A stretch of 62,159 bases of DNA, the filler included. It is 8 parts of 8 records of this genome, joined end to end, with 100 filler letters (N's around TTAATTAATTAA, not from the genome) between each part and the next. Parts side by side here need not be neighbours in the genome. Positions count along the whole stretch, not along the records: positions 23,221 to 34,659 come from SRR31156797_37458; 7 more parts are not named here. One strand, 5' to 3'. The notes under the pieces were generated by a model. That model had not been told where the DNA came from. It did not search any database and worked only from the letters and a program-made list of their open reading frames with translations. Position 1 is the stretch's first letter. Every line of letters starts with the position of its first letter. Made by a program: the position numbers and the translations under genes. This document shows, piece after piece, positions 8,092 to 49,206 of the stretch.

Positions 8092-8095
8092 ACAA

Positions 8096-8695: not shown

Positions 8696-8760
8696 AGCTC
8701 CGCCCCTTGATTTACATCAAATATTATTTACAACAACCCGTTTTATTTAACAGCAAATAC

Positions 8761-10158: not shown

Positions 10159-10168
10159 TGTTTAAATA

Positions 10169-10993
10169 TTATCCTTTATTTCCCTTATAACGGTAATAAT
10201 TATTGTAACCATAACTTTTCGGTGTATCTGCAAAATTCATCACGACGCCTAAAATATTCTTTTTCCCATAGGCATCAATAATATCCTGGACATCCTGCTT
10301 CCGGGTACAGCCCGCCTTAACAACGAGAAGAATACCGTCCACAAGCCTTGCCAGTGCGCGGGATTCCGAAGTAAGGTGCGGTGGAGGCGAGTCGATGATA
10401 ATATACCTGTCCTCATAGCGGGATTTCAACTCATGGACCAGTCTTTTCATCTGCTCTGACGAAAGAAGTTCCGAAGGGTTTTCAGGAGGATATCCCGCCG
10501 GGAGTATGGTTAGCTTATTAATCGGGGTTTTCTGAAAAATTGAAGAAAGAGGTCTTGTTTTAGCAAGATATTCGCTCAAACCCGGCAACGTTTCAAAACC
10601 GAATTTCAAATGAATAGTGGGAGCCCTTAAATCGCTGTCCATTAATAGAACATATTCGTCAAGACTCTGGGCAATGCTCACAGCGAGATTTGCTGCCACG
10701 AAAGATTTACCCTCACCTGGAATTTTACTAGTCACCAAGACAACACGAGGCGGTTTACCGGTCTCTGGAAACAAAATACTGTTCTTTAAAATTCTGAATT
10801 GCTCTGCCTCTACAGAGTGGGGTTTGAGAGCGGAAACAATAATGGGATCAAGATTTTCAATATTGAAAGAATCATGACCACTCACCATTGAGACAGGCTC
10901 GCTATCACCCGGGACAACCTCATCGTTGTTATCGTCCCGAATCAGTGAATCGGTTTCCAATGTCTTTTCAAGAGCCTTAAATATTTTTCCCAA
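10169..10993 (-). CDS. BY-kinase (CpsD/CapB tyrosine autokinase)
   Basis: GEGKS Walker A, DSDLR, IIIDSPP and Tyr-rich C-terminus (YGYNNYYRY). Confidence 0.93.
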   Translation of the reverse strand: MGKIFKALEKTLETDSLIRDDNNDEVVPGDSEPVSMVSGHDSFNIENLDPIIVSALKPHSVEAEQFRILKNSILFPETGKPPRVVLVTSKIPGEGKSFVAANLAVSIAQSLDEYVLLMDSDLRAPTIHLKFGFETLPGLSEYLAKTRPLSSIFQKTPINKLTILPAGYPPENPSELLSSEQMKRLVHELKSRYEDRYIIIDSPPPHLTSESRALARLVDGILLVVKAGCTRKQDVQDIIDAYGKKNILGVVMNFADTPKSYGYNNYYRYKGNKG

Positions 10994-11010
10994 AACGTTT
11001 TCCTTTTTGA

Positions 11011-11888
11011 CTAAACGATCACATGCATCTTTATAAAAGTTAACGTTCTAACAACCCCGATAATATTTAATATACCAAAAAGAGATAATAACATTCCTGC
11101 ATACAAAGAAACGATCAAAAAAGCGGCCAATTCTAATTTCTTCCTCAAGGCATAACCATTTGCTTTGAGCGGAGGAATAAAGGCTAACACAGGTATCCCC
11201 AATTCATTTTCAATGACTTCTTCTTTTCTGATAGGCGGGTTCACAAATTCCAGAAGAAAAATGATGCAACCACTGAGTCCCAAGCCACCAGCGAGAGAAA
11301 GCATAAATAGTTTTTTCATATCGGGCGAAACAGGTTTCTCTGGCAGTCGTGCAGAGTCAAGGACCCGGAACTGCTCACTTTTCTGTTTTTTTTCCATGCT
11401 TACGGCAAGCTCGGCTTCGAGCTTTCTGTCCAGAAGCGAATTATAGGTCTGTTGTATATTATCATAATCCCGCTGCAGAGAAAGTAATTCCTGTTCACGC
11501 TTTGGTGTATCCGCGACAAGTCTCTGATAAGTTTGCATCTTTTTATCTGTTTTTTTTATGCTGCGGGTAATCAGTTTAACCTCTCTCATCAATTGATCGA
11601 GTTGTATCTGCTGCGGCATTGAACGAAGAGTTTCGTCATTGACGGTTGAGTTATCACTGATCTCGGTTTCAGATCCGGCCACTGCATTGGGTTCCTGATT
11701 TTTTCCGGGTATTACGATATTTTTTTCCGCTTTTTCTCTTAATTTGTCAATGTTTTTTTTCATTTTTACGACATCAGGATGATTGTCGGTATAAGTAAGC
11801 AGCATGCGATTAAGTTCCTGTTCCGCTTGATCAATTGTCATCTCACTGGTTTGAGGCAATATAGCTGCAACGGTAGAAGCATGATTGA
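11011..11888 (-). CDS. Polysaccharide chain-length determinant (GumC/Wzc-like), 5'-truncated
   Basis: YTDNHPDV, coiled coil, 'FRVLDSARLPEKPVSP' and TM; frame is open to the contig edge. Confidence 0.88.
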
Positions 11889-11988
11889 NNNNNNNNNNNN
11901 NNNNNNNNNNNNNNNNNNNNNNNNNNNNNNNNTTAATTAATTAANNNNNNNNNNNNNNNNNNNNNNNNNNNNNNNNNNNNNNNNNNNN
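11889..11988. other. Artificial contig spacer
   Basis: 44 N + TTAATTAATTAA (stops in six frames) + 44 N. Confidence 0.99.
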
Positions 11989-15821: not shown

Positions 15822-15849
15822 AATTAAAAAAATACCTAGGAGTATATTG

Positions 15850-16110
15850 ATGTCTTATTTTGTATATATCTTAGAGTGTAGTGATAAGAGCTTATATACA
15901 GGTATTACAACTGATGTAAAAAAGCGTTTAGATGAACATAACACTTCAGAAAAAGGTGCAAAATATACAAAAGCTAGACGCCCAGTAACACTTATATATT
16001 TTGAAAAATCTGAAAATAGAAGTAGTGCTTCAAAAAGAGAATATGAAATAAAAAAACTATCACGAACAAGAAAGCTACAACTAGTAGAGAAATTTAAAGT
16101 AAACAATTAG
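15850..16110 (+). CDS. GIY-YIG nuclease (UPF0213/YhbQ-like)
   Basis: YFVYIL...LYTGIT, RLDEHN, GAKYT and REYEIK motifs. Confidence 0.92.
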   Translation: MSYFVYILECSDKSLYTGITTDVKKRLDEHNTSEKGAKYTKARRPVTLIYFEKSENRSSASKREYEIKKLSRTRKLQLVEKFKVNN

Positions 16111-17374: not shown

Positions 17375-17474
17375 NNNNNNNNNNNNNNNNNNNNNNNNNN
17401 NNNNNNNNNNNNNNNNNNTTAATTAATTAANNNNNNNNNNNNNNNNNNNNNNNNNNNNNNNNNNNNNNNNNNNN
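17375..17474. other. Artificial contig spacer
   Basis: N run with TTAATTAATTAA. Confidence 0.99.
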
Positions 17475-23120: not shown

Positions 23121-23220
23121 NNNNNNNNNNNNNNNNNNNNNNNNNNNNNNNNNNNNNNNNNNNNTTAATTAATTAANNNNNNNNNNNNNNNNNNNNNNNN
23201 NNNNNNNNNNNNNNNNNNNN
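23121..23220. other. Artificial contig spacer
   Basis: N run with TTAATTAATTAA. Confidence 0.99.
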
Positions 23221-23249
23221 ACCGAGGGTTCGAATCCCTCTCTCTCCGC
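23221..23249 (+). tRNA. 3' end of a tRNA (probably tRNA-Ser), truncated by contig edge
   Basis: GAGGG-TTCGAAT-CCCTC T-arm followed by TCTCTCCG acceptor strand and G discriminator. Confidence 0.8.
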
Positions 23250-23317
23250 TAATTTTGAATACTAACAATAATTAATAGAATAGAAACAAATTTAATTTTT
23301 AATCAACAAAGTAAACC

Positions 23318-24148
23318 ATGAAAAAATTATTTGCTTTTTTGACAATCGTTGTAATGATGTCCTTAGGCTTTGCCACTTCTGCAATTGCGCAGGATGGAGC
23401 TAACCCGGATGAGATGGGTCAAACAGATACTACCGCAATGGTAGAAGACAGCGCAGCCCAGGTGGCCGACGTTCCACCAACAACACTTGAGGAGCAGCCT
23501 GAAGAGCCTAAAGATTTCCAGCAAATATTGAAAGAAAAATTCATCGAAGGTGACTGGAAATTTATGGGTATCGTATTGCTAACACTGATTTTTGGTTTGG
23601 CACTGGCGATCGAAAGAATTATCTACCTCAACCTTTCAACAACCAACACGTCAAAACTACTCAACAAAGTTGAAGCTGCTCTGGAAACAGGTGGTGTGGA
23701 AAAAGCCAAGGAAGTGTGTAAAAACACCCGTGGCCCCGTTGCCGGTATTTTCTACCAGGGTCTCGACAGGTATAATGAAGGACTTGAAGTAGTTGAAAAA
23801 TCAATTGTTGGTTACGGTAGCGTTTTGATGGGCCGTCTTGAATCAGGCCTTTCATGGATTGCTCTGTTTATTGCACTTGCTCCGATGCTCGGATTTATGG
23901 GTACTGTTATTGGTATGATCCAGGCCTTTGATGATATCGCGGCTGCAGGTGACATTTCTCCAACCATTGTTGCTTCTGGTATTAAAGTAGCGCTGCTTAC
24001 AACCGTATTCGGTCTGATCGTAGCGATTATTTTGCAGATCTTCAACAACTATATCGTATCTAAAATCGATAGCCTTGTGAACAACATGGAAGACAGCTCC
24101 ATTTCGTTCATCGACATTCTTACAAAATACAAAGCATCTAACAAATAA
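23318..24148 (+). CDS. exbB: MotA/TolQ/ExbB proton channel protein
   Basis: APMLGFMGTVIGMI and GIKVALLTTVFGL TM motifs. Confidence 0.93.
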   Translation: MKKLFAFLTIVVMMSLGFATSAIAQDGANPDEMGQTDTTAMVEDSAAQVADVPPTTLEEQPEEPKDFQQILKEKFIEGDWKFMGIVLLTLIFGLALAIERIIYLNLSTTNTSKLLNKVEAALETGGVEKAKEVCKNTRGPVAGIFYQGLDRYNEGLEVVEKSIVGYGSVLMGRLESGLSWIALFIALAPMLGFMGTVIGMIQAFDDIAAAGDISPTIVASGIKVALLTTVFGLIVAIILQIFNNYIVSKIDSLVNNMEDSSISFIDILTKYKASNK

Positions 24149-24162
24149 GAAAAAGCACACCA

Positions 24163-24585
24163 ATGAAAGATAGAACAGCAACCATACTCAGGATTTTTCT
24201 TGCAGTTCTGCTGGTAATTTCAGCCGTGTTGTTTGTAATATTTTACTCCCAGGGTGAAAGTTTTACAGACACTGTGATGGTTTGGGCTTATATTTTACTT
24301 GGCATTACTGTAGTAATTACTATTTTGTTCCCGATATTTTTCTTCATCACCAACCCAAAGAAAGGCCTGACCGTTCTGATCGGATTGGCCGGATTTGCAC
24401 TTTTGTATGCCATTGCGCATTTTTCGCTGGCATCAGGAGCAACCCCAGGTGATGTTTATGAAAAATTTGACATTAACGAGTTAACTTCAAAATTTATCGG
24501 GTCAATCTTATACATGACCTATATTTTAGGCGGAATAGCAATACTTTCAATTTTTTATGCAGGTATTTCCAGTTTATTTAAATAA
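24163..24585 (+). CDS. Conserved 4-TM protein of Bacteroidota exbB-exbD operons
   Basis: Four hydrophobic segments; located between exbB and exbD. Confidence 0.8.
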   Translation: MKDRTATILRIFLAVLLVISAVLFVIFYSQGESFTDTVMVWAYILLGITVVITILFPIFFFITNPKKGLTVLIGLAGFALLYAIAHFSLASGATPGDVYEKFDINELTSKFIGSILYMTYILGGIAILSIFYAGISSLFK

Positions 24586-24599
24586 AAAGGAATATCTAT

Positions 24600-25178
24600 A
24601 TGGCTAAAAGACAAACACCAGAAATAAACGCAGGTTCGATGGCTGACATCGCCTTCCTGTTGCTGATATTCTTCCTGGTGACAACAACCATGGATGTGGA
24701 TACAGGTATCAGCCGGAAGTTGCCACCGCCACCAACCGGCGAAGAGGACGAATCTGATATCAACCAGCGGAATATTTTTACTATTTTGATCAATAGTAGG
24801 GATAAACTGCTTGTTGAGAACAAACCCGGAAATATCCAAATGCTGCGAAGCATGACAAAGGAATTTATGACCAATCCCCAGAACAGGGAAGATTTGCCGG
24901 AGATGACAATGAAAAATATTAAAGGAATCGGCAATGTGAGGGTGCCCGCAAAAAGTGCGGTAATTTCTTTGAAAAATGACCGGGGAACTTCTTATAAAAT
25001 GTACATAGCTGTTCAAAATGAGTTGACAGCTGCGGTAAATGAGCTCAGGGATGATTTATCTATGCAGAAGTTCGGCAAGAAATATAGCGAGCTTGATGAA
25101 GATAGAAGCAAGGCAATTCAAAAAGCGCTTCCTGTTCCAATCTCTGAGGCTGAACCAGAAGATATAGGAGGAAATTAA
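24600..25178 (+). CDS. exbD: ExbD/TolR family protein
   Basis: INAGSMADIAFLLLIFFLV motif. Confidence 0.92.
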   Translation: MAKRQTPEINAGSMADIAFLLLIFFLVTTTMDVDTGISRKLPPPPTGEEDESDINQRNIFTILINSRDKLLVENKPGNIQMLRSMTKEFMTNPQNREDLPEMTMKNIKGIGNVRVPAKSAVISLKNDRGTSYKMYIAVQNELTAAVNELRDDLSMQKFGKKYSELDEDRSKAIQKALPVPISEAEPEDIGGN

Positions 25179-25180
25179 TT

Positions 25181-25663
25181 ATGTCAAGATTTAAAAGAAA
25201 TAAAAAATCAGGCGTACAATCCATCAATACATCGTCACTTCCGGACATTATCTTCATGCTGCTTTTCTTCTTTATGGTTACAACCGTAATGCGTGAAGTT
25301 ACACTGATCGTGAAGATTCTTCCACCTGAAGCTACCGAAGTTCAAAAACTCGAGCGAAAATCACTTGTAAGTTACATCTATATTGGTGAACCCAAAAAAT
25401 CAAGTTTATTTGGTTCAAAGCCAAGGATCCAGCTTAATGACCAATTCGCGGATGTAAGCGATATCCAGGCATTTGTAACTTCGGAACGTCAGTCACGTGA
25501 TGAGGTAGACAGGAAATTTATCACCACTTCACTCAAGGTTGACCAGGATATTCAGATGGGTATTGTGACTGATGTGAAACAGGAACTTAGAAAATCAGGA
25601 GCTTTCAAGATTAATTATTCCACACGTAAAGTGGGAGACATTAATTTTGCTAAATTATATTGA
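25181..25663 (+). CDS. exbD: ExbD/TolR family protein
   Basis: SSLPDIIFMLLFFFMV motif. Confidence 0.92.
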   Translation: MSRFKRNKKSGVQSINTSSLPDIIFMLLFFFMVTTVMREVTLIVKILPPEATEVQKLERKSLVSYIYIGEPKKSSLFGSKPRIQLNDQFADVSDIQAFVTSERQSRDEVDRKFITTSLKVDQDIQMGIVTDVKQELRKSGAFKINYSTRKVGDINFAKLY

Positions 25664-25690
25664 TTTTTTGTTTTTATGGTTAATAGGTTG

Positions 25691-25724
25691 GAAGGAGCGC
25701 TGCTTAGTGCTCCTTTCTTTTTTT
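25691..25724 (+). terminator. Rho-independent terminator
   Basis: AAGGAGCGCT-GCTT-AGTGCTCCTT hairpin followed by a T run. Confidence 0.75.
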
Positions 25725-25789
25725 CCTCCCTTTTTATTATCACATCCTCTTCTTCATTAATAATCAAACACTTTGAATAACTAACTGAT

Positions 25790-26029
25790 TTGTTAGTTAC
25801 ATTTTTGTTAGTTAGAGTTTTGATGGGAGAAGATCAACTAAGCTCAAAGGACACTATAAAGAAATACTCCTTAGGCACATCAGCCAATATATCACGCACC
25901 AAAGGAGCATTAATCGAAAAAGAAATAATCGACCATCTGGAAGGAAATATCTACATTCTCGACCCTATTTACAAAGCCTGGCTGGATCGTGTATATTTCA
26001 AAAAGGAAAAACTGGTCCTGTCTGAATAA
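25790..26029 (+). pseudogene. Orphan C-terminal fragment of a Bacteroidota AAA-type ATPase
   Basis: 'KKYSLGTSANISRTKGALIEKEIID...DPIYKAWL' resembles the winged-helix tail of these ATPases; no Walker motifs and no good start. Confidence 0.55.
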
Positions 26030-26031
26030 AC

Positions 26032-27792
26032 CTACTCTTTAGCTAGTTTAAGAGCAAGGCCCAACTCATCCAGTTGATCTTCAGCAATAACAGATGGTGA
26101 ATCGATCATCACATCACGGCCTGCATTATTTTTGGGGAAAGCAATGAAATCACGGATGGAATCTGAACCTCCAAACAAGGAAACCAGCCTGTCGAAACCA
26201 AGGGCGATGCCACCATGTGGTGGAGCACCATATTCGAAAGCATTCATCAGAAAGCCAAACTGAGCCTGTGCTTCTTCATCAGTAAAGCCAAGTACTTCAA
26301 ACATTTTACCCTGAAGCTGCTTATTGTGAATCCGGATGGAACCCCCACCAATTTCAACACCATTGATCACCAGGTCGTAGGCATTGGCCCTAATCTTGCC
26401 GGGGTCGGAGTTCAGATAATCAACATCTTCTGTTTTTGGCGAAGTAAAAGGATGGTGCATGGCATAAAACCTTTGTGTATCATCATCCCATTCAAGCAGT
26501 GGGAAATCAACAACCCACAATGGGGCAAACTCTTCAGGGTTTCGGAGCCCTAAACGGTTGCCCATCTCAAGCCGAAGTTCATTGAGGGCTTTGCGTGTTT
26601 TATTGGCCTCTCCGGCAAGCACCAAAATCAGGTCGCCCGGTTTAGCATCAAATTTTGAAGCCCAGGCTTTAAAATCATCCTGACTAAAGAATTTATCTAC
26701 AGATGATTTAAATGAACCATCGTCATTACATTTAACATAAACCAAACCCCTGGCACCGATTTGCGGTTTCTTGACAAAATCAGTCAATTTATCAAGGTCT
26801 TTCCTTGAGTAGGCACCACAGCCTTCGGCATTGATACCAACCACAAGTTCAGCATCATCAAAAACTTTGAAACCTTTATTTTGAGCAACGTCATTCAATT
26901 TTACAAACTGCATCCCAAAACGGATATCGGGTTTGTCGCTACCATAAAATTTCATGGCTTCATCGTAGGGCATACGCGGAAAATCATAATCGAATTCCAC
27001 ATTTTTCACCAACTTGAAAAGGTGTTTTGTCATGCCTTCAAATGTGGTAAGTATATCATCCTGTTCAACAAATGACATCTCACAATCGATTTGCGTAAAT
27101 TCCGGCTGACGGTCAGCACGAAGATCCTCATCACGGAAACATTTTACAATCTGAAAATAGCGGTCGTAACCTGCCACCATCAAAAGTTGCTTAAAAGTTT
27201 GCGGGGATTGCGGCAACGCATAAAACTGACCCTGGTGCATCCGGGAAGGAACCACAAAATCACGGGCCCCTTCAGGTGTGGATTTAATCAAAACCGGGGT
27301 TTCGATCTCCATAAAGTCAACGCTATCGAGATACTTGCGGGTTTCGGTTGCCATGCGGTGGCGCAACTCCAGGTTTTTCTTTACGGGGTTACGGCGCAAA
27401 TCGATATAACGATATTTCATCCTGAGTTCTTCACCGCCGTCGGTTTCATCCTCAATGGTAAAAGGTGGGAGTATTGATTCGTTAAGGACTTCAAGCGATT
27501 TCAATTTGATTTCAATGTCTCCGGTAGGCAGATTTGGGTTTTTGGCAACCCGTTCGATAACCTCTCCACCAGCCTTTACAACAAACTCGCGGCCTAACTT
27601 TTCAGCAAGGGTAATGATTTTTGCATTGGTTACACCTTCTTCAAGCACCAGCTGGGTAATGCCATATCTATCGCGCAGGTCAATCCAGATCAGGCCACCC
27701 TTATTTCTTACGCGTTGTACCCAGCCTGTTAGCGTTACATTTTCTCCAATATGTTGCGATCTCAGTTCTCCGCAGGTATGTGTTCTCAACAT
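26032..27792 (-). CDS. aspS: Aspartate--tRNA ligase
   Basis: [35 protein letters not shown] and [12 protein letters not shown]. Confidence 0.98.
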
Positions 27793-27940
27793 GATTTGAT
27801 TGTTTTTGTGAATGAGGCGGCGAAAATATAAAAAAGCATCCATTTTAGCTGACTAACCTTGCCCGGATGAACATCTTTAATCAAAATTTAATGGATCAGG
27901 GAATTAACCTAAATTTGTTGATTATTAAAGGAAAGTATAA

Positions 27941-28393
27941 ATGGCATATTTTGAAATCGGTATCTATTATCCCAAAACAGCCGCCAATGTTGGTACCTTA
28001 TGGAGGACTGCCTACCAGCTTGGAGCATCAGGTGTGTTCACCATCGGTAAGCGTTATAAAAACCAGGCCAGCGATCCTTTTAAAGTTCCCCGGCACATCC
28101 CCTTGAGAAATTACCCTGATTTTGATGCTTTTCTGGAAAACAGGCCGTTGGGGTCATTGCTCATCGCCATTGAAGAAAACGGCACTTTATTATCCGGTTT
28201 CGATCATCCGCCCCAGGCAATTTATTTGCTGGGTGCAGAGGATTTTGGACTGCCAAATAATGTACTTGAAAAATGCCAGGCAACCGTTTCGCTTGAAGCC
28301 ATGATAAAACCGTCGTTTAATGTTGCCATAGCAGGAAGCATTGTGATGTACGACCGTGTTTTTGGAAACAAGGTGAAATATCCTGACAAGTAA
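27941..28393 (+). CDS. SpoU/TrmH family RNA methyltransferase
   Basis: NVGTLWRT, LLGAEDFGL and SFNVAIAGSIVMY; TAAATTTG Bacteroidota -7 box at 27910-27917. Confidence 0.88.
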   Translation: MAYFEIGIYYPKTAANVGTLWRTAYQLGASGVFTIGKRYKNQASDPFKVPRHIPLRNYPDFDAFLENRPLGSLLIAIEENGTLLSGFDHPPQAIYLLGAEDFGLPNNVLEKCQATVSLEAMIKPSFNVAIAGSIVMYDRVFGNKVKYPDK

Positions 28394-28408
28394 ATTCCAA
28401 CATCCATT

Positions 28409-29338
28409 TTGAAAGATAAAACCCAAATATCAGGTTGGATCAAACAAAAAGCCCGTGAACTGGGATTTGATCATTGTGGAATTGCCCGGGCGGAATTCCT
28501 GGAAGAGGAAGCTCCGGTTTTTGAAAAATGGTTAAATGCCGGGATGCACGGAAAAATGGTTTACATGGAAAACCATTTCGATAAAAGGCTGGACCCACGC
28601 AAACTGCTCGACGGCGCAAAATCAGTGATCATTTTTCTGAAAAATTATTCCCCCGAAAAAACGCTTCCTGAAAAAGATAATTATATCCTCTCCAAATACG
28701 CTTATGGCAAGGATTACCATTTTGTGATCAAGGATAACCTTAAGATACTCATTGAGGAATTGAAACATGAAGTTGGTGAAATTTCGGCCAGGCCTTTTGT
28801 GGATTCTGCACCAGTGCTGGAAAGAGCATGGGCACAGCGGGCCGGACTGGGATGGATCGGGAAAAATGCAAATTTCATTGTCCCCAGGGAAGGATCTTTC
28901 GTTTTTATTTCCGAAATCATCACCGACCTGGAACTGGATTATGACCCGCCCAAAATAAATGACCTTTGCGGTGCCTGTCGCAACTGCATCGATGCCTGCC
29001 CCACACAGGCTATCATGGCCCCGGGAGTTATCGATTCGAGAAACTGCATTTCTTACCTGACCATAGAGCTGAGAGATGAAATACCACAAGAATTCAAAGG
29101 GCAATTTAAGGATCGTGTATTTGGTTGTGATATCTGCCAGGATGTTTGTCCCTGGACACGTTTTGCCAAAGCACATCAGGAAGAGCAATTCAACCCTAAA
29201 CCAGAACTGCAAAAAATGAAAAAGCAGGATTGGGAAAATCTGGACCGTGACACGTTTAATGGGATTTTTAGGAATTCGGCAGTAAAACGTACGAAGTTTG
29301 AGGGGTTGATGAGGAATGTGAGGTTTTTGGAGAAGTGA
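28409..29338 (+). CDS. queG: Epoxyqueuosine reductase
   Basis: YAYGKDYH, VDSAPVLER, CGACRNCIDACPT and GCDICQDVCPW. Confidence 0.96.
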   Translation: MKDKTQISGWIKQKARELGFDHCGIARAEFLEEEAPVFEKWLNAGMHGKMVYMENHFDKRLDPRKLLDGAKSVIIFLKNYSPEKTLPEKDNYILSKYAYGKDYHFVIKDNLKILIEELKHEVGEISARPFVDSAPVLERAWAQRAGLGWIGKNANFIVPREGSFVFISEIITDLELDYDPPKINDLCGACRNCIDACPTQAIMAPGVIDSRNCISYLTIELRDEIPQEFKGQFKDRVFGCDICQDVCPWTRFAKAHQEEQFNPKPELQKMKKQDWENLDRDTFNGIFRNSAVKRTKFEGLMRNVRFLEK

Positions 29339-29354
29339 TGAGTTGGTAAGTGGA

Positions 29355-29444
29355 GCGACTGAAGCGAATGTAGAGACTTGCGAGAACGAAGGGACTTAAG
29401 CGAAGGAGGCGGCTTTAGAGACTGAAGAGACTATAGCGAAAATG
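29355..29444 (+). repeat. Degenerate 9-bp tandem repeat, 10 units
   Basis: GCGACTGAA GCGAATGTA GAGACTTGC GAGAACGAA GGGACTTAA GCGAAGGAG GCGGCTTTA GAGACTGAA GAGACTATA GCGAAAATG. Confidence 0.8.
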
Positions 29445-29473
29445 GTAACATAATGATCAATATCAATGACAAC

Positions 29474-29643
29474 AAATTACGTACGAAGTGCAAATTACGC
29501 CTAGCATAGCAAGGTAAATGACGTGCAAAGCACCAATGACGCTAAGCACAGCGAAGCAAATTACGTTCGAACGAAGTGAGAACAAATTACACCCAGAAGG
29601 CAAATTACGCCCGCAGGGCAAATTACACCGACCGCAGGGAGGC
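29474..29643 (+). repeat. Array of 8 conserved linker + variable mini-hairpin units
   Basis: Linkers AAATTAC/AAATGAC/CAATGAC at 29474, 29492, 29516, 29534, 29558, 29584, 29602 and 29620, each followed by an 11-19-nt hairpin. Confidence 0.88.
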
Positions 29644-29654
29644 ATTTCCACACA

Positions 29655-29721
29655 TTAACTTTTCCTTAACCTTTGTTAACCGCCCATTAACTATATTCCG
29701 ACACCAACCGATATAGTTTTG
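29655..29721 (+). promoter_or_regulatory. Phased TTAAC repeats and Bacteroidota -7 promoter box
   Basis: TTAAC at 29655, 29666, 29676 and 29687; TAGTTTTG at 29714-29721. Confidence 0.55.
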
Positions 29722-29774
29722 CATCATCACGAAAATACATTTAACAAACACAAAATATCCAAGGAGGAAATCTC

Positions 29775-30989
29775 ATGAAAAATCACAGATTTAATTTACA
29801 GTCGGCAGTAGCCATGCTATTCATTTTTATTCTTGTAGCTGTGGCAGTTACAACAGTGTTTGGACAGGAGAAGAAAGAACGCACCAAAATCGTCCAGCTA
29901 AAGATTACAGAAGATGAAAATGGCGAGGTTAAATCAATTGATACTACTTATGTGCTGGACCAGGATGAAGATTTTGACTTTGACTTTGGGCATGAATTTG
30001 ATGTTAAAATGGAACATCTGAACGATAGTATAAACGTACTTCTGCAGTTGAAAAATGGTGACATGAAAATGATGAACGTAGACTCAATTATGAAGCAAAT
30101 CACCGTTGAACTGGAAGACTTCGAAAATGGGCAAAAAATGATGTTCATTACCCATGATTTGGACGACATTATGGAGGAAATGGACGAGGAATTGAAATTT
30201 TTCTCCTATAATTTCAACAATGTAATGACAGACGGTGACAGCACCATGAAAATAATAGTGAAAACCTGTGTGGATAATGGTGATACCGTTGTGGAAAAGA
30301 AAATTGAAAAGTTTGGTGGCGATTCGGACGAAAAAAACATTTTCATTTTCAGTGATGGTGAAGAAGTGAAAATTGATGAGGATGGTGATGTAAAGGTGAT
30401 TAAACTTGGTGCCGGCAATGGCGTGAAGTGGACCGGAGATACCGTGATTGATAATGACGATGCAAAAATCATCATCAAAACCAAAAAAGATGGCGATGAA
30501 GCCGAACAAACCATTGAATATATTTCAGTAGTCACTGATGAAGACGGCGATATCGACAAGGATATTGAAAAGGAAGTGGTCGTCATCAAAAAGGGAGACG
30601 GCCAAAATGTATGGGTTGATTCGGATCATGAGGTTTATGTGCTTGGCGATGCCAAATACGAATTTCTTCCTGCAGAAGAAAACGACCTCGAAAAACTGAA
30701 AGATGCCGGTGTTAAAACCAAAAAGAAAGACCTGCAGGTTGAAAACCTGAAATTTTCACCCAATCCCAGCAATGGGAAATTCAACCTCAGTTTTACACTC
30801 AGGGAAAAGAAAAAAGTTACCATTAATATTTATGATTTGCAGGGAAACGTTATTTACACAGAAACCCTGAGGGATTTCCAGGGAGATTACAACAAGGAAA
30901 TCGACATATCAGACCAGGAAAGCGGACCCTTTTTTCTGCAAATCGTACAGGGATTGTACGACATTATCAAAAAGATCATCATTCAATAA
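29775..30989 (+). CDS. T9SS type A sorting domain protein with acidic low-complexity body
   Basis: Signal peptide; C-terminal FSPNPSNGKF...IYDLQG...KKIIIQ. Confidence 0.85.
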   Translation: MKNHRFNLQSAVAMLFIFILVAVAVTTVFGQEKKERTKIVQLKITEDENGEVKSIDTTYVLDQDEDFDFDFGHEFDVKMEHLNDSINVLLQLKNGDMKMMNVDSIMKQITVELEDFENGQKMMFITHDLDDIMEEMDEELKFFSYNFNNVMTDGDSTMKIIVKTCVDNGDTVVEKKIEKFGGDSDEKNIFIFSDGEEVKIDEDGDVKVIKLGAGNGVKWTGDTVIDNDDAKIIIKTKKDGDEAEQTIEYISVVTDEDGDIDKDIEKEVVVIKKGDGQNVWVDSDHEVYVLGDAKYEFLPAEENDLEKLKDAGVKTKKKDLQVENLKFSPNPSNGKFNLSFTLREKKKVTINIYDLQGNVIYTETLRDFQGDYNKEIDISDQESGPFFLQIVQGLYDIIKKIIIQ

Positions 30990-31015
30990 CCTCAGTATTC
31001 TATCCGGATTACATT

Positions 31016-31046
31016 GAAAGAGAGCTCCACCAGGGGCTCTTTTTTT
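31016..31046 (+). terminator. Rho-independent terminator
   Basis: AGAGCTCC-ACCA-GGGGCTCT hairpin followed by a T run. Confidence 0.8.
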
Positions 31047-31110
31047 GTGAAACACCTTTCAAACCATTAAAAAACAAAACCACCAAATCAGATAAATGAA
31101 TTGGTGGTTA

Positions 31111-31128
31111 GTAGCCTCACCAGGACTC
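31111..31128 (-). mobile_element. Putative att site (duplicated tRNA 3' end)
   Basis: Minus strand reads GAGTCCTGGTGAGGCTAC (T-loop end, T-stem, acceptor strand) with no tRNA 5' half; downstream hairpin 31078-31109; adjacent to integrase. Confidence 0.65.
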
Positions 31129-31301
31129 AATCAATCGATTTTCTGAACGATTCAATATGCCTCTGTAACCACTATTAATAGGGTTTTATGTCGATTTCAG
31201 GATTTATGAAATCAGATAAACACCTATCAGTAAACAAAATATTATTACCCTTATTATTACCCTTTTTTGTATCTTTGTTTCCAAAACAACAATTTGGATT
31301 T

Positions 31302-32621
31302 ATGGCAACACTCAAATTTTTTCTCAAGGAACCAGACAATAAAAACAAAACCCTGGTGAATTTGATTTACCAATACGGCTACAGCGAGGTAAACCCGAAG
31401 ACCGGCAGGCGACAATACAAATTCTTAAAAATGTCGTCGGGTGAAAGCATTGAACCGAAGTTCTGGAATCCTGATAAATGCAGGGCAAGAGAAACACGAG
31501 CATTTCCGCAATATCCTGAGTTTAACGCTCGGCTTAACTATCTGGAAAACGTTGTAATTAATACCTTTCGCCGATTGAACAATGACGGGGTATTTCCATC
31601 ACCGCCACAATTAAAAGAAGAAGTGCTCAAGAAGGTAAATGAGAAGAAACACGAGGTGGTCGGTAATCAGGAACGCATCGGCTTTTTTGATTTCATCCGG
31701 CAAATCATTGAAGAAAGCAGAAATGGTACCCGCCTGACCTCAAACGGTAAAAGATTCAGCTATCATACCATTAAAGGATATGTTACAACTTTAAAATACC
31801 TTGAAAACTTCCAAAAATACCGAAATGAACGCATAGACTTTGAATCCATAACCCTGGATTTTTATCATGATTGGGTAAAATGGTTTTACAGGATGGACAA
31901 GGCCAAAAACACCGTTGGGAAATATGTAAAAAACCTTAAGGTGTTCATGCGGGAGGCTTTCGACCGACAGATCACGAAGAATAACGAATTCATGAACAAG
32001 AAATTCAAAGTGCTTGAAGAAGAATCCGATGAGATTTACCTAACCAATGAAGAGCTGGATCGGATCCTTGCTCTGGATTTGTCTGATAAACACGGACTCG
32101 ATCTGGTGCGTGACAATTTCCTGCTCGATTGCTACATCGGTTTACGGATTGCCGATTACCGAAATCTGAAGGAGACCCACATCATTGAAATCGAAGGCAC
32201 GAAAATGATTAAGATCCGGTTGCAGAAAACCGGTAAAACGGCAGTGATTCCCCTGAGCAAAAAAGCCCTGGGGATACTCGAAAAACGAAATTTCAGCTTC
32301 TCCACCCATTCAGAACAGGATGTCAACCGCAAAATGAAGGTGATTGGAAAAATGGCAGAAATCGATGAACCGTTTACCAAAAACATCACTCTGGGAGGGA
32401 AAGTCGTTGAAAAGGTTTTTCATAAATACGAAAAGATCTCCAACCACACAGCACGACGCAGCTTTGCCACCAACCTTTACCTTGCAGGGGTACCGACCCT
32501 CGATATTATGCAAATGACGGGGCACAAAACCGAAAGGGCCTTCCTGAAATACATCCGTGTGACCCCGGAGCAAAACGCCATCCGGGTATCGAAGATGCAT
32601 AAATATTTTGCCGTGGATTAA
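31302..32621 (+). CDS. Tyrosine recombinase/integrase (Bacteroidota arm-binding + SAM-like type)
   Basis: GLRIAD, HTARRSFATN, MTGH and KYIR catalytic motifs; likely start MATLKFFLK. Confidence 0.95.
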   Translation: MATLKFFLKEPDNKNKTLVNLIYQYGYSEVNPKTGRRQYKFLKMSSGESIEPKFWNPDKCRARETRAFPQYPEFNARLNYLENVVINTFRRLNNDGVFPSPPQLKEEVLKKVNEKKHEVVGNQERIGFFDFIRQIIEESRNGTRLTSNGKRFSYHTIKGYVTTLKYLENFQKYRNERIDFESITLDFYHDWVKWFYRMDKAKNTVGKYVKNLKVFMREAFDRQITKNNEFMNKKFKVLEEESDEIYLTNEELDRILALDLSDKHGLDLVRDNFLLDCYIGLRIADYRNLKETHIIEIEGTKMIKIRLQKTGKTAVIPLSKKALGILEKRNFSFSTHSEQDVNRKMKVIGKMAEIDEPFTKNITLGGKVVEKVFHKYEKISNHTARRSFATNLYLAGVPTLDIMQMTGHKTERAFLKYIRVTPEQNAIRVSKMHKYFAVD

Positions 32622-32652
32622 GGAATCCTGATCTTTGTTAAAAAAATGAACT

Positions 32653-33606
32653 ATGGCAGAAAAAGCGAAGCAGTCAACACATAACAAAAAGAATAATCCA
32701 GAAAAACAACCACATTATCTCCGGGCTTATTTGAGAGAGCTCAGGCCGACCTGGAAAAAGAAACCTGAATTTGTGATCCCGATGATGGAGGACATGCTGG
32801 AGAAAAAGGCGGAATTTCTGATTGATAAGATTACAATATTGGAATTTGTTCAGCGCTTTATGCTGATTCACGAAAGCAGGATTCAAAAGGTTAAGCCTGA
32901 AATATTCGATGACGTTTTATCGTGGGTATTTTTCAGCAGGCTGCAAGCGCATGCTGACTTTTACAATTGGGTTCGGAAGAAGAAATATGAACAGAAGTTT
33001 TGGTTAACTGATCAGTTTCAGTTGGATTACCTGAACACGCAGATTAAGGAACGTACAGAAAAACTGTTTTATCATAATCCGGCAGATGAAAGAGAAACCA
33101 AACTTCATGATATATTGATGTGCTTTAGAGAAGGCGAGTTTCCTGACCTTAATAAATACAACCTCATTGAAGTAGGCATCGTCATTGGAGATATTGAATT
33201 CATTGAATACCTGGAATCGGAGCGGGACGAATTATTGCAAACAATGACTGAAACAACCGTAAAGGTTCCGGTTGAACTTAAAATCGCTGAAGACACCCGG
33301 CTTCATGAACTGATTGTTCAAATCCCGCCACAGTTTTTCGAAAGTCTTACCCAAAATCAGCAACCGGAAGAATCAGATACCAAAAGAACATCCGGTTCGA
33401 AACGAATTCCAGAACCAAAACTTTATACCCGCGAGCAAACAGCCAGGTTGATGAATCTTTCCATAAGCTCTGTTGATAATCTCACCAAAGATGGTACGCT
33501 AAAATGTCATCGAATTGCAGGAACCAGCATGAAACGCTACAAATGGGAAGATATCGATAATGCTTTGGAGGTGATGGAGATGAGGTTGAATTGGCGATTT
33601 CATTAA
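32653..33606 (+). CDS. Protein with C-terminal excisionase-like HTH domain
   Basis: 'LYTREQTARLMNLSISSVDNLTKDGTL...RYKWEDI'; directly downstream of the integrase. Confidence 0.75.
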   Translation: MAEKAKQSTHNKKNNPEKQPHYLRAYLRELRPTWKKKPEFVIPMMEDMLEKKAEFLIDKITILEFVQRFMLIHESRIQKVKPEIFDDVLSWVFFSRLQAHADFYNWVRKKKYEQKFWLTDQFQLDYLNTQIKERTEKLFYHNPADERETKLHDILMCFREGEFPDLNKYNLIEVGIVIGDIEFIEYLESERDELLQTMTETTVKVPVELKIAEDTRLHELIVQIPPQFFESLTQNQQPEESDTKRTSGSKRIPEPKLYTREQTARLMNLSISSVDNLTKDGTLKCHRIAGTSMKRYKWEDIDNALEVMEMRLNWRFH

Positions 33607-34211
33607 AACCCTTGATCAGACTTTTATTAAACTAAACCTGTAAATCAGCACACCTAATCAGTTCGCTTACTTTTAAATATCAGGGATTAACCATTCAGAA
33701 ATTTTCCAGATGGTTCTCAAGTTTGAACGTGCACCAACAATTTCAGGTAAATCACCCACAATGTTAATTTAATTTAACATAGTGTATTTTAGAAGTATTT
33801 TAAATAGAATTCCATCCCTTTGTTAAACAAGTAGATAAGGTTGCTTTTTCAATTAATTTTTTTCTGCCCCTAAAAAAAATCCTGACAAAAGCCATTCTCG
33901 TGGATCATAATAACAAATGATATCAGGAAGAAACCAGCAAAAGCGAATTGTACATCATTTTCACTTTGGAATTCTTCACGTTCATTTTTTAACTAAATCA
34001 AGTTAAGGGATTGAAATTTAGTTGTTTAAATTGTTGGCTATGTGAGTGACGTGGCGAAGCTGTATAAAAACCGAACGTCAGGACGTGCTAGTCGATCAGA
34101 TTTAAGGCAATCATGCAGAGGAAAAGAATTTTGATCAGTGCGACACAAAAAAATGTTGCCCCTTTTTGGTTTCATAAATAACCGGAGGTTCCCGGGTTAA
34201 TACTTCTGATC

Positions 34212-34574
34212 ATGGAAAATCCATCAAAAAAACAGCGCGTTATGGTGCATAAAAGAAACTGGGCGATCCCATTGATTCTAGGCGGGATATTGTTTTTTTC
34301 CTGTGTCGGATTTGTTCTGGCCTCAGAAAGGCTTAGTCTCAATTTGCACGCCAGGGTTTTGCTTGCCTATTGGTGTGTCGTATTTATATTTATAGCCCTG
34401 CTGTGTACCTACCTGATCGAAAACGATTTTCCTGGCAAACCCAAAGCAGGGAATTTGAGCAAAACAATTTCGCCAAATCACAAAATTTGCAATTCATTAT
34501 TTCAATACAAACAACAGCCAGGTTTCGCAGAGCCCCGACATTCATCATCAGGGTTAAAAGTGCTTGAGCCGTAG
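34212..34574 (+). CDS. Putative 2-TM hypothetical protein
   Basis: 120-aa ORF with two hydrophobic segments; weak RBS. Confidence 0.4.
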   Translation: MENPSKKQRVMVHKRNWAIPLILGGILFFSCVGFVLASERLSLNLHARVLLAYWCVVFIFIALLCTYLIENDFPGKPKAGNLSKTISPNHKICNSLFQYKQQPGFAEPRHSSSGLKVLEP

Positions 34575-34659
34575 CGCCTATGCTGAAGCTTCTCCTTCCT
34601 AGATTAACTTCGAAGAAGGAGCTTCGGCGTAAGCATATACCGGGAAACTGGCACTGCCT

Positions 34660-34759
34660 NNNNNNNNNNNNNNNNNNNNNNNNNNNNNNNNNNNNNNNNN
34701 NNNTTAATTAATTAANNNNNNNNNNNNNNNNNNNNNNNNNNNNNNNNNNNNNNNNNNNN
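34660..34759. other. Artificial contig spacer
   Basis: N run with TTAATTAATTAA. Confidence 0.99.
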
Positions 34760-40884: not shown

Positions 40885-40984
40885 NNNNNNNNNNNNNNNN
40901 NNNNNNNNNNNNNNNNNNNNNNNNNNNNTTAATTAATTAANNNNNNNNNNNNNNNNNNNNNNNNNNNNNNNNNNNNNNNNNNNN
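40885..40984. other. Artificial contig spacer
   Basis: N run with TTAATTAATTAA. Confidence 0.99.
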
Positions 40985-46076: not shown

Positions 46077-46176
46077 NNNNNNNNNNNNNNNNNNNNNNNN
46101 NNNNNNNNNNNNNNNNNNNNTTAATTAATTAANNNNNNNNNNNNNNNNNNNNNNNNNNNNNNNNNNNNNNNNNNNN
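46077..46176. other. Artificial contig spacer
   Basis: N run with TTAATTAATTAA. Confidence 0.99.
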
Positions 46177-47214: not shown

Positions 47215-48696
47215 GTGAGTTTTAAACAATTTTCTTTTGACCGGCGTATCATGGCCGGAATCAATGCTTGCGGCTATGAAACGCCGACCCCCATTCAGGC
47301 TAATGCCATTCCCGAAGTTCTCAAAGGTCGCGATGTAATGGGCCTTGCCCAGACCGGAACCGGTAAAACAGCGGCTTTTGCCCTGCCCATCATGCAACGT
47401 CTGCTGGATAATAAATTCTCAGGTCAGGGTCCGATTCGGGTATTGGTACTTGCGCCGACCCGTGAACTTGCCCTGCAGATTCATGAAAATTTCATGGAAC
47501 TCGGAGTTGAGGCTGGGATCCGCAGTGCCGCTGTCTTCGGCGGAGTTGGAGCCATGCCCCAGATTCAGGCTGCTCGCCGTTCATCCGTTATTGTGGCTTG
47601 TCCCGGACGTTTGCTGGACCTTATGAATCAGGGCGTAATTAAGCTGGACAAGGTAGACACCCTCGTTCTGGATGAGGCAGACCGCATGCTGGATATGGGC
47701 TTCCTGCCGGACATCCGCAGGATTATGTCCAAGCTTCCCAAGCGTCGCCAGAACCTGCTTTTTTCCGCAACCATGCCTGATGATATCCGCGACCTTGCAG
47801 ACAAAATTTTGTACCGCCCGGCAACCGTGCAGGTTGCGAATACCGCGCCGGCCAAGACGGTTGAGCATCTTTTTTACCCTGTCAGCCAGCACCTGAAAAA
47901 CAATCTGCTTTTTAGGGTTCTTGAGCAGACCGATTATGATAGCCTGTTGGTTTTTACCCGTACCAAGCATAAGGCCAAGAACCTTGCCCGCAGGCTTGCA
48001 GCACGCGGGCATAAGGCTACTTTTTTGCAGGGCAATATGAGCCAGAATCAGCGTCAACGCGCTTTGGACGGCTTCAGGGACGGTTCCTTCAAGGTTATGG
48101 TTGCTACTGATATTGCTGCCCGTGGTATTGACTGCGATCGCATCACTCACGTGGTCAACCTTGATGTCCCGGATACTGCAGAAACCTACACCCACCGCAT
48201 TGGCAGGACCGGGCGTGCAGGACGTAGCGGTAGTGCATTCTCATTTGTTACCCGCGATGATCTGCGACTCATGCGTGAGATTGAAAAGGCCGTAGGGTAT
48301 TCCATTGAGCATCGCACTCTGGAAGATTTTGATTATGATAAGCCCAACACCCATCCTGCCCCGGCAAAAAAAGGTGGCGGACGCAAACCTGCGGGAGATC
48401 GCAAACCTGCCGGAGAGCGTAGACCGGGAAGAGGACGTAAGCCTGCTGAAGCACGCAGTGGGGATGACGACCGCAAGACTGGAGAAGGCCGTAAAACCGG
48501 AGGCAGACGCAAGCCGGGTGGCGGACGCAAACCGAGCGGCGGTCCTGCAAAGCATTCGGATGAAAGACGTGATTCCCGTCCCGTCCCGAAACGTAAATCC
48601 GGTAATTCCAAAGGAAACACTGAAGATAATGCGAAACGCAAGACCGGAAGGCCTTCAAGGAGAAAACGCCGTCCGTCCCGCTTTTCTAAAGTATAA
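47215..48696 (+). CDS. DEAD-box RNA helicase (RhlE-like) with basic repetitive tail
   Basis: AQTGTGKT, PTRELA, DEAD, SAT and HRIGRTGR. Confidence 0.96.
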   Translation: MSFKQFSFDRRIMAGINACGYETPTPIQANAIPEVLKGRDVMGLAQTGTGKTAAFALPIMQRLLDNKFSGQGPIRVLVLAPTRELALQIHENFMELGVEAGIRSAAVFGGVGAMPQIQAARRSSVIVACPGRLLDLMNQGVIKLDKVDTLVLDEADRMLDMGFLPDIRRIMSKLPKRRQNLLFSATMPDDIRDLADKILYRPATVQVANTAPAKTVEHLFYPVSQHLKNNLLFRVLEQTDYDSLLVFTRTKHKAKNLARRLAARGHKATFLQGNMSQNQRQRALDGFRDGSFKVMVATDIAARGIDCDRITHVVNLDVPDTAETYTHRIGRTGRAGRSGSAFSFVTRDDLRLMREIEKAVGYSIEHRTLEDFDYDKPNTHPAPAKKGGGRKPAGDRKPAGERRPGRGRKPAEARSGDDDRKTGEGRKTGGRRKPGGGRKPSGGPAKHSDERRDSRPVPKRKSGNSKGNTEDNAKRKTGRPSRRKRRPSRFSKV

Positions 48697-48942
48697 TCAG
48701 GTGCTTTGCTTTTCGGACATGTGTTTTTTTATAGAGAAATAATTTATATTTGAAATATTTCCCTTGACTTTTGCATGGAAGTAGTAAAACTGTGTCTCTA
48801 GTTGCCAGCGGCCTCTTGGAAGGACGTTGGTTTTAGTTCAACAGGTATATCAAGGAGCAGGGTACGCATCTTGTACGCTGCCCTTTTTTTTATACCTGAC
48901 GCATTTGCGTGAAAGTTTATACATTTTTTAGGAGAATTTTTA

Positions 48943-49206
48943 ATGTCCAAGAACATCTATGTCGGTAACCTGCCCTGGTCTGCAACTGAAGACGAAGTCC
49001 GCGCTGCTTTCGAAGCTTTCGGTGAAGTTGTATCTGTTAAACTCATCGAAGACAGAGAAACCGGTCGTCCCCGTGGCTTCGGTTTTGTTGAAATGGAAGA
49101 CGCTGGCGCAATGGAAGCTATCGACAATCTGGATGGTAAAGACTTCGGCGGACGTAACCTCAAGGTTAACGAAGCGAAGCCCCGCGCACCTCGCCCCCGC
49201 TGGTAG
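48943..49206 (+). CDS. Single-RRM RNA-binding protein
   Basis: RNP2 IYVGNL and RNP1 RGFGFVEM. Confidence 0.96.
   Translation: MSKNIYVGNLPWSATEDEVRAAFEAFGEVVSVKLIEDRETGRPRGFGFVEMEDAGAMEAIDNLDGKDFGGRNLKVNEAKPRAPRPRW

Follow-up and report, generated by a model that had tools for sequence, protein, structure and literature searches.

What might a string of small palindromes be doing behind queG, the gene for an epoxyqueuosine reductase? We asked this of a window of 62,159 nucleotides (the whole stretch of DNA analysed, filler included), in which a 7-nt linker recurs between short palindromic spacers downstream of that gene. An earlier note on this DNA had described an array of eight such linkers, each followed by a different mini-hairpin, and the coordinates, linkers, spacings and spacer sequences that it gave were all recovered. 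We are highly confident that the array belongs to a non-coding, dispersed and tandemly expanding family of DNA-level repeats. The family is real and widespread, and we found no description of it in the literature searched. Its copy in the window is laid out as follows.

29464 to 29643, + strand: whole array, with nine WAATKAC linkers, one 3-nt spacer (AAC) and eight different palindromic spacers
29441 to 29463, + strand: degenerate linker remnants AAATGGT and TAATGAT (1-2 mismatches) without hairpins, read directly
29481 to 29491, + strand: unit 1, short hairpin GTAC-GAA-GTGC with one G-T pair
29499 to 29515, + strand: unit 2, long hairpin GCCT-A-GC-ATA-GC-A-AGGT with a 1x1 A/A loop and a non-GNA triloop
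29523 to 29533, + strand: unit 3, short hairpin GTGC-AAA-GCAC with a non-GNA loop
29541 to 29557, + strand: unit 4, long hairpin GCT-AA-GC-ACA-GC-GA-AGC
29565 to 29583, + strand: unit 5, long hairpin GTTC-GA-AC-GAA-GT-GA-GAAC with tandem GA/GA
29591 to 29601, + strand: unit 6, decayed short unit ACCC-AGA-AGGC, in which 2 of 4 pairs remain
29609 to 29619, + strand: unit 7, canonical family unit GCCC-GCA-GGGC; the identical 11-mer occurs in the related loci L004 and L070
29627 to 29643, + strand: unit 8, long hairpin ACC-GA-CC-GCA-GG-GA-GGC with tandem GA/GA and the canonical CC-GCA-GG tip

The linkers read, in order, CAATGAC, six times AAATTAC, AAATGAC and CAATGAC. An additional first linker (CAATGAC, 29464-29470) forms with its AAC spacer a standard module of the family; the remaining eight start at 29474, 29492, 29516, 29534, 29558, 29584, 29602 and 29620, at spacings of 18, 24, 18, 24, 26, 18 and 18 nt. 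The palindromic spacers measure 11/17/11/17/19/11/11/17 nt along the array, each centred on 3 nt. Two descriptions in the earlier note needed correction. Hairpin-less remnants had been placed at 29441-29470, which holds for the mismatched linkers up to 29463 but not for 29464-29470, where a true linker is followed by its AAC spacer. Likewise, seven of the eight loops are indeed C-(purine-N-A)-G as written, but only four (GAA and GCA, twice each) are GNA, the stable DNA type, and the ATA, AAA, ACA and AGA loops of the other four do not belong to the type for which PMC13037366 reports stable mini-hairpins in DNA. A CC/GG stem combined with a GNA loop is found in units 7 and 8 only. Two-purine internal loops are present, as had been noted, in three of the four long units (AA/GA, GA/GA and GA/GA), and the fourth carries the 1x1 A/A loop. 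By tandem-repeat analysis the array is a 42-nt block of one short and one long unit that is present three times, with copies 69-74% identical, and this is an old duplication. The window array is a diverged member of the family, half of its loops having drifted from GNA.

We compared the pairing with that of shuffled spacers. Of 45 spacer mirror positions, 35 are paired (33 of them Watson-Crick) against 14.7 (sd 2.85) in per-spacer shuffles, and none of 20000 shuffles reached 35, which confirms the observation of a hairpin array. The summed minimum free energy of the spacers as RNA was -20.2 kcal/mol against -7.1 +/- 3.3 kcal/mol after shuffling, with 0 of 2000 shuffles as low. Pairwise identity was 90% among the linkers, 52-59% among the spacers and 44-53% at outer-stem positions, so the note's idea of conserved structure with variable sequence is borne out within the window. 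The intergenic region as a whole did not fold above shuffles (z 0.12 on the + and 1.61 on the - strand); the special feature of the locus is local repeated palindromy rather than global structure. The linker word itself is not enriched, as AAATKAC has 26 matches in the window against a shuffle mean of 25.8, and 7 of the 26 lie on the + strand inside 153 nt at the array.

Does the array have relatives? A pattern of three linkers with R/Y flanks only was scanned across 185,579 species genomes and gave at least 123 loci; the window's own array is not among the matches listed. At least 22 loci (22 of the 123 matches listed) are hairpin arrays with the grammar of the window, 18 of them chosen by a crude palindrome count and 4 by eye, after L003, L016 and L068 had been dropped as other repeats. 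Since loci were chosen partly for their hairpins, the family statistics given below are inflated, and because the linker was set by the search pattern, its identity across phyla is partly there by construction. The 22 loci carry these labels, mostly of metagenome-assembled genomes (MAGs):

L011, L017, L018, L046, L070, L080, L088, L094, L122: Bacteroidales or Bacteroidia MAGs
L031, L062: Lentimicrobiaceae
L033, L111: Bacteroidota
L024: Calditrichaceae
L004, L005, L008, L030, L045: delta-proteobacterial MAGs
L100: MAG labelled as an unclassified 'bacterium'
L032, L105: small contigs binned as Clostridia and Acholeplasmataceae, where the binning may be wrong

Model R1, a covariance model built from 18-nt units of the family, was run on 100 loci and found 77 units in 15 of them, all previously called true, and none in the other 85, many of the matches being its own training sequences. 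On the 62-kb window it gave five matches, all of them array units (E 0.0003-0.53; next match elsewhere E 0.8), four of which had been in the training set. BLAST in distant mode returned no match for the array in 72,556 plasmid and 50,697 phage records, although the low-complexity filter of that search may hide repeats. The unit strings GCGCGAAGCGC and GCCCGAAGGGC did not occur in the papers listed by one literature search, nor did we find in the literature searched as a whole a description of AATGAC/AATTAC-linked hairpin arrays; subscription journals lay largely outside it.

The relatives allowed us to read the grammar of the units. Counts for the family refer to selected loci among the matches listed, plus the window where so stated. 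A census of 46 arrays gave 285 linker-plus-spacer units with spacers of 0-30 nt, which peak at 3 nt (102 spacers, such as CAT, AAC, TAT and AAT) and at 11 nt (57), with smaller peaks at 4 (21), 7, 9, 13 and 17-21 nt. Spacers of zero length account for 4 of the 285, and the window array contains no adjacent linkers. The building blocks are the A/T-rich heptamer WAATKAC and the segments that separate one heptamer from the next, which are fillers of 3-4 nt or mini-hairpins of the DNA type. The 57 11-mers (27 distinct) have 218 of 228 mirror positions paired, their loops being GAA (30), GCA (21), GTA (1) or GGA (1) with a C-G closing pair in 53 of the 57. The 7-mers are GCGAAGC or GCGCAGC and the 9-mers GGCGAAGCC-like. 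Short units have 2-5 bp closed by C-GNA-G; long units, of the form stem-GA-GC-GMA-GC-GA-stem, add a tandem G-A/G-A internal loop, which we saw in the window and in L062, L046, L105 and L031.

Pairing and strand were then considered for the family. In 34 distinct 18-nt units with four stem pairs each, 92.6% of the stem pairs were formed against 68.3 +/- 2.5% in shuffles (0 of 500), and 36 double-sided changes stood against 13.4 expected from shuffles (0 of 500), so that the covariation for which the note had suggested a test is indeed present. Controls with slid partners gave 24-53% pairing. On the AAATKAC strand, 90 of 116 odd-length spacers of at least 7 nt read C-GNA-G (87 of 109 without the window), and the reverse-complement type C-TNC-G was found 0 times, in agreement with a strand-specific element as the note had suggested. 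The family, then, exists as such: its stems covary, and loop, closing pair and linker are conserved and tied to one strand.

This consensus is that of a known DNA structure, whose grammar has been tied to single-stranded DNA (ssDNA) stability by experiment (PMC13037366). In the cited passages of that article, only GNA loops among the 64 GCNNNGC sequences give a mini-hairpin, and GC/GC or CC/GG stems are needed; the DNA seven-mer melts at 70-76 C against 39 C for r(GCGAAAGC), a stability that standard thermodynamic models do not explain, and SSB binds mini-hairpin DNA poorly. The family shares with mini-hairpin DNA (GCGNAGC / GCGNNAGC) the GC or CC stem, the GNA triloop and the C-G closing pair. 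Natural mini-hairpins are described at ssDNA priming sites (G4 ori, RSF1010 ssiA) and as hairpin promoters of phage N4, cases that work only when single-stranded and that exclude SSB (PMC13037366). The known examples are single hairpins in phage or plasmid origins, whereas in the family up to 18 units, joined by a conserved linker, are strung together in the chromosome, and this at many loci.

Could the arrays act as RNA instead? The copy in the window might be transcribed as part of the queG 3' untranslated region or of the downstream leader. Its hairpins or its A-rich linkers could then bind an RNA-binding protein, modulate translation from within a leader, or direct the processing or stability of the transcript. 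A promoter and terminator scan of 29200-29900 returned no terminator and one weak promoter-like site inside the downstream gene; read-through from queG is therefore plausible. About seven sense arrays lie at most 150 nt upstream of a start codon (L004, L005 with two, L032, L080, L094 and the window), and tandem G-A pairs are stable in RNA as well. Heptamer repeats upstream of start codons have also been proposed as translational regulators (PMC4679880). However, the 16 fully flanked arrays stand in mixed orientation to their genes (7 sense, 5 antisense, 4 convergent), and the loops are not GNRA or UNCG tetraloops but GNA triloops of the kind that is stable in DNA; as RNA, the mini-hairpin is far less stable (PMC13037366). 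Single units reach 0 to -4.6 kcal/mol as RNA (0 to -2.4 as DNA) in nearest-neighbour calculations, and the surrounding region folds like shuffled sequence. The summed energies of the two strands are small and nearly symmetric (-20.2/-16.7 for RNA, -7.9/-7.3 for DNA); as nearest-neighbour models miss GNA stability, these values discriminate neither strand nor DNA from RNA. A gathering-threshold scan of the window with Rfam 15 gave only a cobalamin riboswitch on another piece, and scans by E-value (up to E 10) of 29100-29900 and seven related loci stayed at chance level, the best being plant miRNA models at E 0.15. STAXI is a named tandem-hairpin motif that we considered among the Rfam comparisons. 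We regard an RNA element as improbable: the mini-hairpin consensus, the mixed gene orientation and the lack of tetraloops together favour an ssDNA element.

Next to consider is how the arrays are placed and how they grow. Their flanking genes are unrelated to each other and encode a thiolase, GcvT, AtuA, TetR, ABC and MacB/FtsX transporters, MreB, a beta-lactamase-fold protein, Wza-like exporters and others. We scanned 58 open reading frames (ORFs) from the 2-kb flanks of 21 of the loci, and among these there were no transposase, integrase or HUH genes; tabulating neighbours, as the note had proposed with HUH or RAYT genes in view (RAYT: REP-associated tyrosine transposase), came up empty. With ORFs called simply as the longest frames, 24 arrays with usable flanks comprised 7 sense co-directional, 5 antisense, 4 convergent, 0 divergent and 8 incomplete cases, so that none of the 16 fully flanked arrays has divergent neighbours. 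An inverted GTMATT arm lies within 150 nt at eight loci, all eight with the reverse arm to the left of the forward arm. In L062 the inverted left arm (1616-1990) is a 10-nt repeat of about 32-35 copies, GTCATTGATNG-like, that holds the reverse-complement linker. Several arrays can be found within a few kb of each other (L004/L005, L017/L018, L080). The delta-proteobacterial arrays in L004 (reverse strand), L005 (180-242 and 1950-2000) and L008 have in common a non-repeat head of about 45 nt (TTTTAAGTGTTAGGTAAACCCC...AGCTATTAGCGGCAAT-like), which argues for dispersal rather than independent birth. These heads are preceded by GGTT-rich repeats and the arrays stop just ahead of a Shine-Dalgarno sequence and start codon, so that they look like a dispersed leader cassette.

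Growth is visible in young higher-order repeats, namely 29 nt x9.3 in L070 (95% match) and 36 nt x4.7 in L045 (93%), and further in L088 (24 nt x8.7), L032 (38 nt x5.9) and L062 (84 nt x1.9). Arrays expand via tandem duplication of multi-unit blocks. Contigs often stop within an array (for example L046, L070, L105), which indicates that arrays break assemblies. Going beyond the earlier note, the array is linked to heptanucleotide simple-sequence repeats, both as pure tandem and as 10-nt forms: at least 58 loci (58 of the 123 matches listed), mostly with cyanobacterial labels, are pure head-to-tail arrays of the same heptamer, one with a Limibacterium label (L014) having 17 copies, and L027 and L094 contain 10-nt repeats of linker plus 3 nt.

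Much of this would also be expected of self-expanding simple-sequence DNA with neither a partner in trans nor a function, that is, a heptamer microsatellite with hairpin inserts in which GNA hairpins cause slippage and template switching keeps the stems paired. The pure and 10-nt forms, the higher-order repeats of L070, L045, L088 and L032, the three 42-nt blocks of the window, the contig ends inside arrays and the lack of an enzyme among flank and window ORFs all suit such an origin, as do the other short tandem repeats that adjoin arrays (a 9-mer in the window, the 10-mer x32 in L062). Heptamers are moreover reported to be the commonest long simple-sequence-repeat unit in bacteria (PMC4679880, citing Mrazek 2007). 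It does not sit well, on the other hand, with linkers so much more identical than stems in the window array, with the coupling of linker and loop orientation, which is absolute (90 versus 0), with the fixed geometry of the inverted pairs or with the same composite grammar in several phyla as labelled. Fold-back copying would, in addition, erase the tandem GA/GA loop, which nevertheless recurs. We consider this explanation possible, though rather unlikely.

The system that comes closest in behaviour is that of the repetitive extragenic palindromes (REPs) and the bacterial interspersed mosaic elements (BIMEs) that they form. Like the family, REP/BIME are small extragenic palindromes whose stems vary while the single-stranded bases beside them are conserved (PMC3733652; PMC6006769), lie between unrelated genes in both orientations, rarely between divergent genes, and occur as head-to-head pairs and clusters (PMC3733652). 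REPs are thought to act as folded ssDNA, as is proposed here for the family. Could the arrays then be genuine REP/BIME, moved around by a transposase of the RAYT (TnpA-REP) type? Their placement would fit (PMC3733652), and RAYT-associated REPs listed in PMC6006769 carry GC-GAA-GC, GC-GCA-GC and GC-ATA-GC tips, a tip module therefore shared with known ssDNA substrates of Y1 transposases. Among the Y1 proteins, subclass 2.6 is particular to Bacteroidetes and is accompanied by REP-like structures termed 'atypical' (PMC6006769). The dimensions differ, however. REPs are imperfect palindromes of 20-40 nt, conserved in sequence within a genome, with stems of about 7-16 bp and GT[AG]G or CGTC tags (PMC3733652; PMC6006769; stems of 8-9 bp or longer in PMC3733652), whereas family units measure 7-21 nt with stems of 2-5 bp, are arranged as direct tandem strings (all eight units in the window differ) and conserve a 7-nt linker (WAATKAC / GTMATTW) without a GT[AG]G or CGTC foot. 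Where CGTC or TGTC appears in arrays, it always includes the final base of a stem and stands 4 nt away from the hairpin that follows. REP/BIME genomes are further marked by a cognate Y1-HUH gene with the repeats on its flanks (a REPtron); neither the 11.4-kb piece that carries the window array nor the 2-kb flanks of the 21 loci contain a RAYT or other Y1 gene. The subclass-2.6 structures were rejected as a match, their stems of 8-10 bp and GCTAG- or CTGG-type feet, as given in PMC6006769, being unlike family units, and CGTC-tagged REPs as described in PMC3733652 were rejected as different from the family. We judge a true RAYT-mobilised family very improbable. Of the three outcomes that the note had named as refuting it, none came about: arrays occur elsewhere, their pairing is far above that of shuffles, and no REP/BIME described in PMC3733652 or PMC6006769 and no Rfam family was found to match.

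We tentatively favour, at slightly less than an even chance, a strand-specific ssDNA form that is read by an enzyme acting in trans in a REP-RAYT-like manner. The element would work at the level of DNA and through neither RNA nor protein. Once the AAATKAC strand becomes single-stranded, as lagging-strand template, in a transcription bubble or during transfer, each spacer would snap into a mini-hairpin resistant to nucleases and SSB, with the 7-nt linkers staying single-stranded between the hairpins like the string between beads. This folded form would be recognised, and probably spread, by an ssDNA enzyme encoded elsewhere in the genome, as RAYT does with REP/BIME, and slippage at the hairpins would alter unit number. 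The copy in the window would sit passively between queG and a gene for a cargo protein of the type IX secretion system (T9SS). More speculatively, and in our view unlikely in this full form, the arrays might be unrecognised, horizontally spread chromosomal ssDNA signals of Bacteroidota, Calditrichota and Desulfobacterota, in which SSB-excluding GNA hairpins present the 7-nt word to a dedicated enzyme encoded elsewhere (a Y1-HUH or GIY-YIG-type nuclease, or a primase-like protein); stems would be free to vary and linker, loop and tandem G-A would be read, giving a REP-RAYT-like system of new architecture.

Several observations weigh against the favoured ssDNA reading. No candidate enzyme was seen near arrays among the 58 flank and 66 window ORFs, and the 62-kb window has one array only, unlike REP densities. 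Half of the loops in the window copy are non-GNA, so that any GNA-dependent function is weakened there. Nearest-neighbour energies are small under RNA and DNA parameters alike, and counting mismatches by eye in alignment A1 (about 7 G-T versus about 8 A-C cells) picked no strand. Template switching in quasi-palindromes, with fast concerted change of stems, could mimic selection. Finally, both the choice of loci by their hairpins and the linker fixed in the pattern bear on how much the family statistics and the likeness across phyla can carry.

Other repeat systems are more distant. CRISPR arrays have repeats of ~23-50 nt, unique spacers of similar length and cas genes or a leader nearby, in contrast to the 7-nt repeat and 11-19-nt palindromic spacers found here; no cas domains were detected in the array piece, and 'inverse of CRISPR', as the note put it, is a metaphor without support. 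Its 'modular binding or cleavage scaffold' is likewise a metaphor for which we found no evidence. IS200/IS605 ends, which are subterminal hairpins on either side of tnpA/tnpB with a specific cleavage site of 4-5 nt, were rejected, there being no tnpA or tnpB in the piece or in the flanks of the relatives. The TTAC within the linker presumably resembles the IS608 target. In the NIMEs of Neisseria it is the palindrome that is conserved and the variable part that lacks structure, the reverse of the window family. Like the family, the dRS3/RS arrays of Neisseria are intergenic mosaics in which a short conserved repeat alternates with variable segments. CGTC-1/dRS3 elements are described as clustered (PMC3733652).

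The nearest described phenomenon at the level of the repeat is the TAACTGA heptamer, which forms intergenic, head-to-tail arrays, predicted to be unstructured, in Beggiatoaceae, Cyanobacteria and Bacteroidetes (PMC4679880). The two have in common a 7-nt unit, an intergenic position, a patchy distribution over several phyla, a frequent location before start codons, mixed repeats and contig breaks; they differ in sequence and in that TAACTGA repeats lack hairpin modules, and AATGAC/AATTAC is absent from the main text of that article (PMC4679880). Beside some heptamer arrays (L060, 2090-2140; L080, 969-1203) we observed TTAACTGY octamers, TGGAATC heptamers and 8/16-nt TCGTACTC repeats, the octamers resembling the published TAACTGA repeats.

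Should the family prove to be what it seems, REP/BIME, NIME and heptamer simple-sequence repeats, a short list of bacterial extragenic repeats, would be joined by a new architecture. If true, it would be the first bulk chromosomal use of the DNA mini-hairpin, so far encountered at phage and plasmid priming sites and in aptamer engineering. The family makes selection on ssDNA structure, the spread of short repeats across phyla and the substrate of an orphan ssDNA enzyme accessible to testing. Gene callers can take such arrays for small ORFs. For the window itself the consequence is modest: it has a diverged copy in the spacer between queG and the T9SS gene, with no sign of local function.

The window carries just such an ORF on its minus strand (29463-29651), whose frame is open through the entire array and would encode a small Cys-rich hydrophobic protein of 62 aa. 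It has no Pfam match, the one spacing of 26 nt puts the repeat out of register with the frame, spacers of the relatives (0-30 nt, with 3, 11 and 4 nt among the commonest) cannot keep it, and conservation is in pairing, not in codons. We rejected the ORF as spurious; a real protein is hardly credible here.

The surroundings of the array are limited to its own piece. The window consists of eight pieces of 29.5-54.6% GC, joined by spacers of 44 N, TTAATTAATTAA and 44 N; with such differing GC the pieces may derive from more than one organism, and gene neighbourhoods stop at the spacers. The piece with the array (23221-34659, 11.4 kb, 40.7% GC) carries ExbB/ExbD genes, aspS and a SpoU-type methyltransferase gene before queG. 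The features concerned are:

11889-11988, 17375-17474, 23121-23220, 34660-34759, 40885-40984, 46077-46176 and 53029-53128: joining spacers
28409 to 29338, + strand: queG (epoxyqueuosine reductase), the upstream gene, identified by Pfam and by NCBIfam TIGR00276 (343 bits, cut-off 200)
29345 to 29448, + strand: tandem array of about 11 purine-rich, AGMGACTKA-like units that repeat every 9 nt, starting 7 nt after the queG stop
29775 to 30989, + strand: secreted protein with a T9SS C-terminal sorting domain, the downstream gene, by profile matches
31188-32621: tyrosine integrase with SAM-like N-terminal domain, 1.5 kb downstream of the array

That no cognate enzyme is visible on the contig, as the earlier note had it, holds for the ORFs scanned, among them no Y1/HUH transposase domains in 66 window ORFs including those of the 11.4-kb piece, but the contig is that piece only. 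The integrase is the sole recombinase seen, none being present in the 2-kb flanks of the other 21 loci. It is followed by a 317-aa protein (region to 33606) without a family match and with a helix-turn-helix-like C-terminal segment, and the two are probably part of an integrative element whose ends lie out of sight, since the piece extends only to 34659. The array could accordingly be imagined as recombination or arm-type sites of this element, repeated short direct motifs being typical of such sites. Yet integrases are missing from all 58 flank ORFs at the other loci, 28000-52000 has no second array or matching direct repeat, the piece has no tRNA gene by tRNA scan, and it ends 2 kb past the integrase with the far end unseen. 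We hold this to be highly improbable.

A few minor features of the region remain. The repeat of 9-nt period is unrelated in sequence to the heptamer array, and purines make up 64% of the + strand at 29339-29643, compared with 53% in the piece. In the stretch that separates the array from the T9SS gene, TTAAC occurs four times at ~10-11-nt spacing (29655-29692), a region in which CCACACATTAACT and CCGCCCATTAACT form a direct repeat. TAGTTTTG at 29714-29721 fits, by eye, what we take to be the Bacteroidota -7 consensus; there is no TTTG at the usual distance and we draw no conclusion from it. A strong Shine-Dalgarno-like AAGGAGG stands 8 nt ahead of the T9SS-gene start codon (29758-29777), which is unusual if the host is one of the classical Bacteroidia.

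Other pieces hold genes of their own. A PEP-CTERM-type exopolysaccharide cluster spans 48-11859 (EpsH exosortase / DUF3485 / polysaccharide-export / sugar-transferase locus), and the 29.5%-GC piece encodes a stand-alone GIY-YIG nuclease-domain protein of 87 aa (15847-16110), unlinked to the array piece. At 47215-49206, on another piece again, a DEAD-box helicase precedes an RNA-binding protein of 87 aa with a single RRM. The cobalamin riboswitch found by the Rfam scan lies at 53510-53699 (80 bits, E 4e-18), upstream of a protein with a B12-binding domain (53810-54442).

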